Shown piece after piece: positions 6,501 to 52,990 of a stretch of 64,000 bases of DNA (within the stretch, counting starts at the first letter, position 1; each line of letters begins with the position of its first letter). The position numbers and the translations under genes were made by a program. The notes below the pieces were generated by a model that had not been told where the DNA came from, ran no database searches, and saw only the letters and a list, made by a program, of their open reading frames with translations. Source of the stretch: Squalus acanthias (Eukaryota); the NCBI GenBank assembly GCA_030390025.1, contig CM059432.1, forward strand, positions 70,682,001 to 70,746,000, in the 5' to 3' direction.

Positions 6501-9500
6501 TTGGTAAGGTAAAATTAAATGAATCAGGAAAGGTTAACCATGTTGGGTGTCTCAAAGAAAGACGCAGTGTTGATGGATAGAACGAATCAGTGAATTGGCA
6601 ACATGATTTTGTCATGAAGTCTATTCATTAATTTTGCTACTGCATCTAAATGTTGAAGATGTTGAGGAGGTATGTACCAAAGGACTGGTAATGATGGGAG
6701 AGGAATAGGGCATAACAAGGCAAATAACAGCCTGTAGTTGAGTATCCACCAGCTTAGTGTGCATTCGGTGACCCCCAAACAGAAGTGAAATATTCTGTAA
6801 CTGAATCGCAGTGTACAAGAGCAGATGAACGTAAAGTGGAGGCATTTGCTCCCCAGGGAGAGCCAGCAAGTTTGGCGATTCAGCTATTGCAGGTTTTAAT
6901 TTTCTCAGCAGTTTTCAGTAGATGGTTAGTGACTGATCAAGGGTGATGCCCAGGTAAACAGGGTGAGCATCATGTTTAAGAAGTTGACCATTTAGGACGA
7001 TAGCAAGTTCATGAGGCACTAGCACTGTGCAAGTGAAAGATGGGAGGATACAGTCTTTATGGCAATCCAACAATTGCTGTCCTAAGTTTCAAGAGTTTTC
7101 TAATCAATTATACAAGACATCTGCCTTCAGCATGTTAGAAGGACCTACACAGGACAGTCTATGATGTGCCAGCCACCTTAATGTTCTAAACCCAATGTTA
7201 CATATTAGGCTTACTTGTAACCAACAGGTCATTGGAGAGATTATGGCAAATAAATGTGCGCACCAGAAGGCTGAATTTCCCACCTAGAGAGGGTGCTCTG
7301 TGACCAAGGCTGAGCCCTTCGTTCCTGCAACAATTTCCCTCTCTTGCCACAAATCCATCCTGTGGCTTGGATCTGAACCTTGCACATGTGTAGAAAAAAA
7401 AAAGCCCTTCTGTTGCATTCCTAGGGGTATTGTACCATGAAGAGGAATGATTTGGACTTGAGCTTGTGGCATTCCTGTACTGGAACTCTTGAAAAGACCA
7501 AAGTGCCTTTTTCTGCTCATTAGTTCAGTTTTAAAGGACCTTTTCCAGGATAAAGTTAGTATCCATCAGGATCCGCAGGCACAATACAATTGTGACAGAT
7601 GACTCCCATGTTTCTCCACTCAATAACGATCCCTTGAACCATGAAAAGCCACAATAATGGCATCTGGGGCACCCACCATTATGGATCAATAGTAGCTCAG
7701 TGTTAAAGTCATGGGTTGAAGCCCCAGTCCAGGAATTGAGCACATAATCTAGGTTGACACTTCAGTGCAGTACTGAGAGTGTGCTGCATTGGCAAAGGTG
7801 ACGCATTAAACCAATAGGCCCTATCTGCCTATTCTTCAGGTGGATGTAAAAGATCCCATGGCACTATTCAAAGAAGAGCAGCAGAGTTATTCCAGTGTCC
7901 TGGCCAACATTTATACCTCAATTAAAACGGAGATAATCTTTTATCTCATTGCTTTTTGTGAAACCTTGCCTTGCACAAATTGGCTGTTATACTTGCCCAC
8001 ACTTCAGAAGTAATTTATTGCCGATGAAGCACTTGGGACATCCTGAGAATATGAAAATTGTTATACAATGCAAGTTCTTCCTTCTTTACCTATTGTTTAA
8101 GGTAGTGAGCCCACCAACACAGTATCTGTGAAACTGAATGTCCCAATTCTTCAGATACTTCAAAAGCATCCCTTATAATGGGTTTCCATTATAAGCCTCA
8201 GTTATATCCAAGGAGAATATCAGTCACACCAGACACTGGTAATGTAGCCTGTTACCAAACAGATTTAGTCAGTTATTTCACAGAAATAAGCAGCAGCAGC
8301 CAAACACAAAACCTTTGAACGCATTCATGAGAGGTTGAACACACAAACCAGTCAGTTGAGTCCCTTTGAATAGCTTTCTTTACCAATAACACTAAATAGA
8401 AAGGGAGTAGCCATCCCATCCCTATCGACTAGTTATCTCAACATTACATAAGCAGCCCCATCAATGGCGTAATCGTACTGCTTCAGTATCTGTGGCATCC
8501 ATGTCAAACATCAACTAACTTAGCAAGTCAAAGTGCCCAATCCTTATTCCCATAAAATCTTTTGAAATAGTCTTTGTTGAGACAAAATCTGCAAGACAAG
8601 TCACTTCACCAAGACTGAACTGCAAGTTCCACAACAAATACATAAAAGTATACCTATGGCTACCTATGTTTGACAAGTGTTGACTTTGCCATGGCTATCC
8701 TCATTAAATTAAAGTTGTTTAATAGGCTAGTGATGCATATTATGGGTATATTCAATTAGGACCACATGTCTATTTGTAATTAACAGTACTGGCTTTAATT
8801 GTAATATAATTCATGCAAAGCTAAAAGAATAGAAACCAGTTTCCCTCCGAGTTGTAGAAGTCATTTTGAGGATGGCAGCTTTCTTAAAAGAACCTGCTTT
8901 TAAAGTTAAGAAATTCAGCAGAGACAACTCAAACCAAGGACAAAAATGCCCCATTTCCATCAGAACTTAAACTCCTCACTATGCAAATGTGGGACACATC
9001 TCCACTAAAATATTATAACTAAGAAGGTATTTATAAGATGCCATTTATTTTCTCACCTATTGGGTATTTTTGGATAGTATCCACAAATGTGTCAAATACC
9101 AAACCAGAAAAGAATTTTCCAGAACAGCTAGTAACATGTTTGGTTCATTTATCCTAATCTGCAATCTAAATACCATTAAAATTACCTCCAAACTTCTTCT
9201 GAACGCAGTAGTTGATGAAACATAGCCTCTCCCATCTCTTTACGAACCCGAATTTCCAAAACCAGTTTGTGCTGTCTTTCAGCAATCAGTTTTTGTTTTA
9301 GGTTTTCTATCGTGCCCAATAATTCCTGAGTAAGAAAACAGAAAAATCTATAGTATGAACAGTGTCCAGGTGAAGATCAGCATACAAATTAGAATCATCC
9401 AACTGATACATTACATACATTTCAGCTTCTGAATAAATTTCAAAAAGTAATGGATGGATATAAAGCACTTGGAACATCCCAAGTACATCAGGCTTTATAT

Positions 9501-47247: not shown

Positions 47248-52050
<4,803 letters not shown>

Positions 52051-52172
52051 GGTAACTTCCTGACCGACTTATCCGTCGACTCTTTCGGTTGGGATTTTGA
52101 AAGTGAACGAACAGCGGTGAGTCAGGAACACGCGAGCAGCCCTCAGCTCCGCACGAGCCCGCAGTCACAGCT

Positions 52173-52270
52173 AAAGAGGAAGCGGCGGGGCCTCGGCGGC
52201 GCTTAAATCCAGCTCGGGCAAACGCCCCGGAAGGAAACAACTTCTTGTTTTTGGGGGCGGGGCGGGGTGG
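52173..52270 (-). promoter_or_regulatory. RPS20 core promoter: TCT/5'TOP initiator, ETS (GABP-like) site and GC boxes within a CpG island (about 51720-52320)
   Basis: CTTCCTCTTT at 52182-52173; AT-rich TTTAA about 25-30 nt upstream; CCGGAA at 52227-52232; GGGGCGGGGCGGGG near 52254-52267. Confidence 0.85.
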
Positions 52271-52340
52271 GCTGGGCCGCCAGCTCAGAGAGCGCAAATC
52301 ACGGTGCCCGCAGCGGCGGGGTGACTCTTTCTTCATCATT

Positions 52341-52990
52341 GGCAATTGCCTATTAAAAAGTCAACCATTAGGGGGCACAAACAAATAACGACTGTAACTT
52401 AAAACAAATTAAAAGGAACCTTAACGAATTTAATTAAAATTTTGTTCCAGGGGTGACTTTATTTCAGGCAGTTGCCTAATTAAGTTTCAGCATTGGTTGT
52501 GCCCCCCCCCTCCATTTTAAAGGGACACAACCAATAAGGACTGTAACTTAAAAAACAAAAGAAAAGGAAACTTAACAAATCAAATTAAAATTCTATTCCC
52601 GGGGGTGATGATGCACTCCAGTCCCTGTGGTGCCCAGCGGGCGCAGATGGCCTCGAACATGCCGGCTGACACCGCGTGCTCCATCTCCAGGGCCACCCGG
52701 GCACGAACGAAGAGAGGCAGGCAGTCGGGCCGAACGACCGCCCGCTGCCTGGACCTGTCGATGGCCTCCTTGACCAGTCCCAGGAGCAGTCCCACGAGGA
52801 GATCCTCTGACTTGCCCGCTTCCCCCCCCCCCCCCCCCCCCCGCTACGCACCGGGTGACCAAAGATCAGGAGCGTGGGACTGACATGCAGCCAAAAATCA
52901 AGGAGCAGCCCCTTCAAACAGTGGAAGAGGGGCTGCAACCTCTCACACTCTATATAAACGTGGAAAACGAACTCCTCCAGGCTCCGCGGT
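52341..52990 (-). mobile_element. Tx1/L1-clade LINE 3' ends, two tandem copies (52467-52990 and 52341-52457)
   Basis: ORF2 C-terminal remnant FHVYIECERLQPLF...SPTLLIFGHPV...LLLGL.K.AI.RSR...RWAPQGLECII; the second short copy repeats the 3'UTR. Confidence 0.75.

Follow-up and report, generated by a model that had tools for sequence, protein, structure and literature searches.

A conserved hairpin with a predicted C-loop in the RPS20 leader of Squalus acanthias, a candidate protein-read regulatory element

RPS20 gene and its transcript

The window analysed is a stretch of 64,000 nucleotides of Squalus acanthias DNA, to which all coordinates refer. The ribosomal protein (RP) gene RPS20 is located on the minus strand, and the hairpin under study lies within exon 1 of this single-copy gene. 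The gene is organized as follows.

52227..52237, minus strand: upstream promoter site of GABP/ETS type (TTCC-TTCCGG), corresponding to the GABP site that lies upstream of human and mouse rpS20 (PMC554972, supplement 3, p. 23)
52203..52208, minus strand: TATA-like box, preceding the predicted start by 30 nt
52173..52179, minus strand: TCT initiator / TOP motif, sequence-based, with the predicted +1 C at 52178
52051..52178, minus strand: RPS20 5′UTR, 128 nt, free of upstream ATGs and poorly conserved over its first 50 nt
52048..52050, minus strand: RPS20 start codon, the final three bases of exon 1
50946..52047, minus strand: intron 1, 1102 nt, GT-AG
50846..50945, minus strand: exon 2, joined to exon 1 in spliced contigs
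50157..50220, minus strand: snoRNA U54 in intron 2 (Rfam RF01277, 59.2 bits)
50008..50081, minus strand: exon 3
47248..47430, minus strand: exon 4, coding part to the TAA (PF00338, E 1.9e-15)

The coding sequence of 360 nt is distributed over four exons and encodes 119 amino acids. A paralogue or retrocopy was rejected because the genome of the same species (3.7 Gb) gave a single DNA match to the leader and a single protein match. An upstream open reading frame or N-terminal extension was rejected as well, since an upstream ATG is absent and in-frame stops lie upstream. The TOP motif (a cap C followed by a pyrimidine run) at 52178, called with the TCT/TOP consensus, occupies the same alignment position as the human and mouse starts, and transcription is predicted to begin here. 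The 128-nt 5′UTR of the original prediction agrees with this TCT motif and with the TATA-like box at -30; its start remains a predicted one, as the contigs extend only to 52164. Mouse Rps20 is termed a canonical TOP mRNA in excerpts of the literature, and S20 is entered as TATA +/+ in Table 1 of PMC554972. In Table 2 of PMC1933418, which gives lengths only, the RPS20 leader measures 98 nt in sole cDNA, longer than any other available for the 40S proteins of that species, and in halibut, where it ranks second, it measures 97 nt.

Evidence for transcripts was taken from the spliced joint in contigs. Spliced contigs join 52047 to 50944 in 4/4 runs (organisms B, C, E and G, from four studies) and cover the whole hairpin, and in a fifth organism (F) the contig passes from exon 1 into exon 2 sequence. 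Thus, the hairpin is present in the mature mRNA. The normal intron 1 splice was the only one in the contigs (4/4 runs); retention of intron 1 leads to a stop after 65 codons.

A second GGUGAGG occurs in intron 1 at 52029-52023 of the minus strand (+19 to +25, 19 nt after the donor). Its use as a donor, which is absent from the contigs, would shift the frame and give a stop after 9 codons. It is absent from the short printed stretch of the human and mouse intron, and organism H does not align here. Two repeats were also observed around the gene. The first is a tandem duplication of about 150 nt upstream of the promoter (52317-52604), 83-92% alike in the aligned parts, which carries short inverted repeats, possibly MITE-like ends. 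The second is a high-copy SINE-like repeat in intron 1 (51612-51725), present in hundreds of contigs in two runs.

Predicted structure of the leader hairpin

52057..52128, minus strand: whole predicted hairpin (h1-h72, where h is the position in the 72-mer and h1 = 52128)
52120..52127, minus strand: 5′ strand of the basal helix (h2-h9), pairing with 52065-52058 (h64-h71), 8 bp, invariant
52106..52113, minus strand: 5′ strand of the middle helix (h16-h23), pairing with 52077-52070 (h52-h59), carrying pair-preserving fish/mammal changes
52078..52105, minus strand: apical extension, made up of a loop and a weak helix of 5 bp that has two registers; mammals have a 5-nt loop instead
52113..52117, minus strand: long strand CCGCU (h12-h16) of the predicted C-loop, with the short strand AAG at 52070-52068 (h59-h61) (PMC4551918)

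The hairpin sequence quoted in the original prediction was found exactly at 52128-52057 of the minus strand. Its end lies 6 nt from the ATG (52050-52048), as had been read from the sequence, and 9 nt from the intron 1 donor. The minimum free energy (MFE) was -23.0 kcal/mol, with z of -2.76 and -2.90 in two shuffle tests in which 2/200 and 12/2000 dinucleotide shuffles folded as well; the opposite strand was not significant (z -1.0). A z of -2.76 or lower was reached by 10 of 320 sampled 72-nt windows, and the fold strength by itself is unremarkable. The proposed fold of three helices was recovered in part. The hairpin and its basal and middle helices stand. The MFE structure adds the pairs h11-62 and h12-61, which split the first internal loop into 1x1 and 3x1 loops, and the apical 5-bp helix is ambiguous, its two registers being 0.3 kcal apart (-22.7 for the earlier register plus the two extra pairs, -23.0 for the MFE register). 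In the spliced-mRNA context, pair probabilities were 0.79-1.0 in the basal helix, 0.69 for h11-62 with h12-61, and 0.81-0.98 in the middle helix. Pre-mRNA folds are dominated by a 16-bp helix of the upstream flank and 5′ arm with intron positions +4..+19. This helix was rejected as functional, since its partners are not conserved in human, mouse or organism H, and it was regarded as a GC-rich fold particular to this species.

The Rfam search that had been proposed fits the hairpin to no family at gathering score. Over the whole window, snoU54 was the sole match, and at 51900-52300 with E<=10 seven weak matches were obtained, all of them well short of the gathering score and centred elsewhere than on the hairpin. 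Moreover, the consensus features of the K-turn (tandem G-A), the IRE (C-bulge and CAGUGN loop) and the sarcin-ricin motif (AGUA/GAA strands) are absent from the predicted structure.

The 3x1 loop of the MFE structure, CCGCU*AAG, is invariant in fish, human and mouse. As described in PMC4551918, the core of a C-loop consists of five plus two bases, in which the pairs C2/A6 and C4/G7 cross, and 0-2 further bases are bulged. CCGCU*AAG fits the sequence pattern, with a 3 x (0-2) loop, C at position 2, A/C at position 4, U-A closing and a Watson-Crick pair 1-7. In supplement material of the same paper, the natural variants of IL_3V2F_100, a 23S instance, include CCGCU*AAG 677 times; JAR3D accepts this sequence (score 47.76) and RMDetect does not. 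CCGCU*AUG has an edit distance of 0 to a solved instance (PMC4551918). A loop of the C-loop pattern was found in the MFE structure of 38/3000 shuffles and 9/888 tiles; with about five motif types considered, the corrected chance of such a match is several percent. The invariant internal loop is therefore best described as a predicted C-loop, known from its sequence match to natural variants. [quoted passage not shown] It differs from the rRNA C-loops in that it is located in an mRNA, its 3D contacts are predicted, and its flanking helices are unrelated to the rRNA of the same species.

Conservation of the hairpin

Human and mouse were compared by eye using the rpS20 alignment printed in PMC554972 (supplement 3, p. 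23), with pairing read from the alignment. Two blocks are identical in fish, human and mouse.

52108..52127, minus strand: 5′ invariant block (h2-h21), 20 nt
52056..52070, minus strand: 3′ invariant block (h59-h73), 15 nt

The statement in the original prediction that human RPS20 shares the basal-stem and internal-loop sequence and differs apically agrees with this alignment (PMC554972). The mammalian apical part is a 5-nt loop closed by h22-54, h23-53 and h24-52. Human and mouse differ at 3/51 hairpin positions, and all three lie within the 5-nt loop (P 0.0005 for random placement), whereas their UTRs align poorly over the first 50 nt. Between fish and mammals there are four differences in the alignable arms, and the eight-pair middle helix is preserved. 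The pair h17-58 changes from G-U to G-C (at h58), h19-56 changes from U-G to U-A (at h56), and h22 and h54 change jointly, which shifts a 1-nt bulge and keeps eight pairs (a register slip). Every basal and middle helix pair is kept in human and mouse as judged by eye. The pattern thus comprises two one-sided changes and one register slip, with 0 two-sided changes among three lineages only. Both one-sided changes are transitions, and their joint chance is about 0.1-0.4 by our own estimate. The basal helix is uninformative about pairing because it never varies. The change pattern suggests that pairing is maintained, short of proof. With regard to the deeply conserved RNA structure proposed originally, the identical arms, the loop-confined or pair-preserving changes and the C-loop match speak for it, and three lineages are too few to give the proposed covariation test any power.

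The distance from hairpin to AUG is not conserved (6 nt in fish, 17 nt in human and 14 nt in mouse, counted by eye). The distance from the start is near-constant (+51, +57 and +50, respectively), and the block spacing differs by 22 nt between fish and mammals. Exon 1 of RPS19 and RPS17 in the same genome shares runs of at most about 6 nt with human (2/2 comparable genes), and in RPS19 exon 1 human and mouse are identical. Of the three control genes, RPS16 was left out, its exon 1 not being located. During these comparisons, an RPS16-like frame with an intronless coding part and an apparent splice acceptor a few bases before the ATG was observed (locus L028, G000:C25:7834670-7835068); it may be an expressed retrogene with an acquired 5′ exon. 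RPS17 intron 1 carries ATCCGCCGCCATCC (about 7300-7325 of locus L041), which is absent from RPS20. This element resembles the YY1-type downstream motif of mammalian RP genes. The RPS19 exons match G000:C257 and G000:C777 with equal scores, as a haplotig or a recent duplication would.

In closer relatives, exon 1 showed 0 differences in three runs and 1 unlisted difference in each of two. These related organisms were found through shared words, which biases toward identity. In organism H DNA, 0 differences were listed in 52067-52128 (62 nt) vs 12 in 52129-52243 (115 nt; Fisher P 0.009), a comparison in which 3 of 15 differences are unlisted near piece ends, since those within about 30 nt of the ends are not listed. 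The apical extension (52078-52105, loop included) is unchanged in all compared relatives, and the organism H flanks diverge by about 10%. The extension may be a lineage-specific addition, or its constancy may be an effect of run selection. An intron 1 patch at 51840-51940, which includes a short GC hairpin, is alignable in organism H, though 51941-52035 is replaced. Matches to an 18-nt pattern at 20 metagenome loci were rejected as orthologues (0/20 RPS20), and two-arm hairpin patterns gave 0 matches in viral contigs and 0 in genome contigs.

Complementarity to the intron 1 donor

52115..52121, minus strand: anti-donor segment CUCACCG (h8-h14), which overlaps the C-loop and is complementary to the donor sequence UG|GUGAG of fish, human and mouse

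The 5′ arm is thus complementary to a donor lying 9-20 nt downstream. The arm-donor duplex was calculated at -11.1 kcal/mol vs -8.6 kcal/mol for U1 of the same genome, and pairing as good was found in 15/3199 tiles. Shuffled arms equalled the donor pairing (n=5000) in 1.8% of cases when free, 6.4% with AP-1 fixed and 1.3% with the basal strand fixed. The complementarity is at a chance level of 1-6%, and it was noticed post hoc. Furthermore, GUGAGG is a common donor, also used by RPS20 exon 3 and RPS19 exon 1. For these two reasons the complementarity is the weakest leg of the interpretation. The 3′ arm contains GGUCAGG, one mismatch from the donor GGUGAGG. In nested folds, the CUCACC-donor helix has about 1-2% probability. 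About 7 kcal/mol is needed to open the upper basal pairs, and a pseudoknot could, by a rough estimate, be near-isoenergetic with the hairpin. The hairpin and the arm-donor state are mutually exclusive because the anti-donor segment overlaps the C-loop.

A splice-site switch maintained since the split of cartilaginous and bony fish is conceivable, and we regard it as improbable. The invariant bases would form either the C-loop hairpin or a U1 mimic that hides the donor in a pseudoknot, and free uS10 or an assembly partner would choose between the two. In such a switch, ACUCACCG, vs U1's ACUUACCU, would be tuned to the intron 1 donor at -2 and +3. It would mean that the supply of RPS20, and with it the release of U54 snoRNA from the intron, follows 40S assembly.

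Proposed function and alternative explanations

The RPS20 leader hairpin is very probably a real RNA structure, and it is likely to be a protein-read regulatory element. An action on intron 1 splicing is less than probable, and uS10 as its ligand, proposed by analogy, is doubtful, although surplus uS10 would be the leading candidate. As a whole, we tentatively read the conserved C-loop hairpin as a candidate protein site that would lower RPS20 output, likeliest via slower removal of intron 1. We hypothesize that the hairpin would fold first during transcription and that the C-loop would offer a fixed 3D surface for the protein. The bound protein beside the donor, or an exchange of the arm onto the donor, would hinder productive use of U1, and the outcome would be RNA that retains intron 1 and carries an early stop. 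Since the hairpin is still present after splicing, at a nearly fixed distance of 50-57 nt from the cap, scanning could be slowed by this complex as well, as it is by the yeast RPL30 element. A ligand that stabilizes the hairpin would free the donor and not hide it, which counts against this explanation.

Mimicry of rRNA is common, not obligatory, in RP autoregulation. When the arms were compared with 18S of the same species, 611/1000 and 744/1000 shuffles matched as well, and no copy of the C-loop with its flanks was found in its 18S/28S. Mimicry through the longest 5′-arm match to 18S (7 nt at 1201, near a head helix contacted by uS10) was rejected as chance level. Splicing feedback is reported in the consulted passages of a review for S9, S13, S14, S26, L3, L4, L10a, L12, L30 and L32, and RPS20 autoregulation was not found in the passages of two reviews on RP feedback.

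Among the alternatives, the best surviving is a real hairpin that acts in the cytoplasm only, where it would adjust how the TOP mRNA is scanned or how stable it is, and whose reader is not uS10 but another factor (a helicase, an RNA-binding protein, another RP or the 40S); we consider it somewhat unlikely. Scanning generally proceeds through a naked hairpin of -23 kcal/mol placed 50 nt from the cap, which counts against it. It is consistent with the retention of the hairpin in spliced transcripts of five organisms, with the high pair probabilities in the mRNA context, and with the near-constant distance from the start (+51, +57, +50) when the AUG/donor distance varies from 6 to 17 nt. The failure to find rRNA mimicry for uS10 in 18S/28S of the same species also favours it. 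However, it leaves the donor complementarity unexplained, and most of the metazoan RP feedback in the review passages acts on splicing.

Alternatively, the blocks may be downstream promoter DNA elements (AP-1, ETS/GABP or other sites) with an incidental fold, as the original prediction allowed. Two perfect motifs are present.

52118..52124, minus strand: AP-1-like heptamer TGACTCA
52056..52062, minus strand: ETS-like CAGGAAG

Exon 1 lies within a CpG-rich promoter, the position of the 5′ block relative to the start is nearly fixed, and the 22-nt difference in block spacing equals about two DNA turns. According to PMC554972, exon 1 conservation is general among human and mouse RP genes, and human and mouse S20 lack the downstream YY1 motif. 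The motif was not found in 51900-52320 either, so a substitute is possible. Nevertheless, the AP-1 and ETS cores span only 14/35 invariant bases, and with the cores fixed, 7/2000 shuffles fold as well and 203/5000 arm pairs bind as well. The C-loop explains the fixed unpaired bases, and the transcription factor motifs (h5-11, h67-73) do not. DNA sites also predict neither the block edges at helix ends nor the pairing-preserving changes nor a C-loop. The 5′ TTCC that an inverted second ETS site needs is absent in human and mouse, and a stem derived from two inverted ETS sites was rejected on the ground that this TTCC is not kept in mammals. The motifs are present, and their coverage and the shuffles weaken the view that they suffice. 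An exclusive DNA role has a low probability in our view; RNA-structure and DNA-site roles may coexist.

That the fold arose by chance and has no function, in a first exon that is rich in GC and evolves slowly, is very improbable: 10/320 windows fold as well and human-mouse identity can be total in an RP exon 1 (rpS19), yet 20 + 15 nt are identical to mammals, in contrast to the diverged 5′ half of the same leader and to the diverged first exons of RPS19 and RPS17.

Relation to known elements and significance

Returning to the protein-read hairpin, the nearest likeness is yeast RPL30 (old L32), described in PMC5640933 as a structured 5′ RNA of an RP transcript beside the intron 1 donor, with an internal-loop module and retained after splicing. 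Action on both splicing and translation is proposed there (PMC5640933). The RPL30 fold includes splice-site bases and has a purine-rich loop, whereas the RPS20 hairpin is wholly exonic and C-loop-like, with a putative ligand. The purine-rich loop of RPL30 is a K-turn. Elements of metazoan RP splicing feedback are mostly intronic, unlike the exonic RPS20 hairpin. In the review passages, those of RPS13, RPS26, RPS9, RPL3, RPL10A and RPL12 resemble it as conserved non-coding elements near an early intron, with unproductive splicing to a premature stop; RPS20 is absent from the listing in those passages. The fungal rps20 motif, as described by Li and Breaker (2017), is likewise a conserved structure tied to the gene of the same protein. 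It is set apart by its description (3′UTR, three stems, Saccharomycetes only), and homology is unsupported. Hyperconserved vertebrate 5′UTRs also combine extreme conservation with a link to alternative structures (bioRxiv 10.1101/2020.06.29.165878, main text). They are defined by an overlap of at least 250 nt with conserved elements, whereas the RPS20 element has about 50-70 nt, and Rps20 is unnamed in that main text.

In the sources searched, the hairpin is undescribed, a weak negative as prime-sign spellings may escape and subscription journals are mostly uncovered. RPS20 gave 0 matches in the main text of bioRxiv 10.64898/2026.10.24.761493 and 10.1101/2020.06.29.165878, whose supplementary candidate lists may include it. 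There was no match for rps20 in the supplements consulted of PMC11685710 (8 files), PMC7072992, PMC11310781 and PMC2413145. In the part consulted of PMC12632453, the motif occurs solely as a qPCR primer.

The hairpin is probably an undescribed element of a vertebrate RP mRNA, with protein-binding feedback as its likely role. Genome-wide screens such as EvoFold may already have picked up the RPS20 locus. Post-transcriptional balancing of single-copy vertebrate RP genes is, to our knowledge, known for only some. RPS20 variants are reportedly found in familial colorectal cancer, and dosage of the human gene is relevant. The element has about 50 nt, with blocks identical from cartilaginous fish to mammals and a recognisable predicted 3D module, beside the first donor. 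It defines an exact and cheap set of mutations with which a putative feedback on uS10 can be probed. It would add a C-loop to a vertebrate mRNA leader, and its bases are places where non-coding patient variants merit attention.
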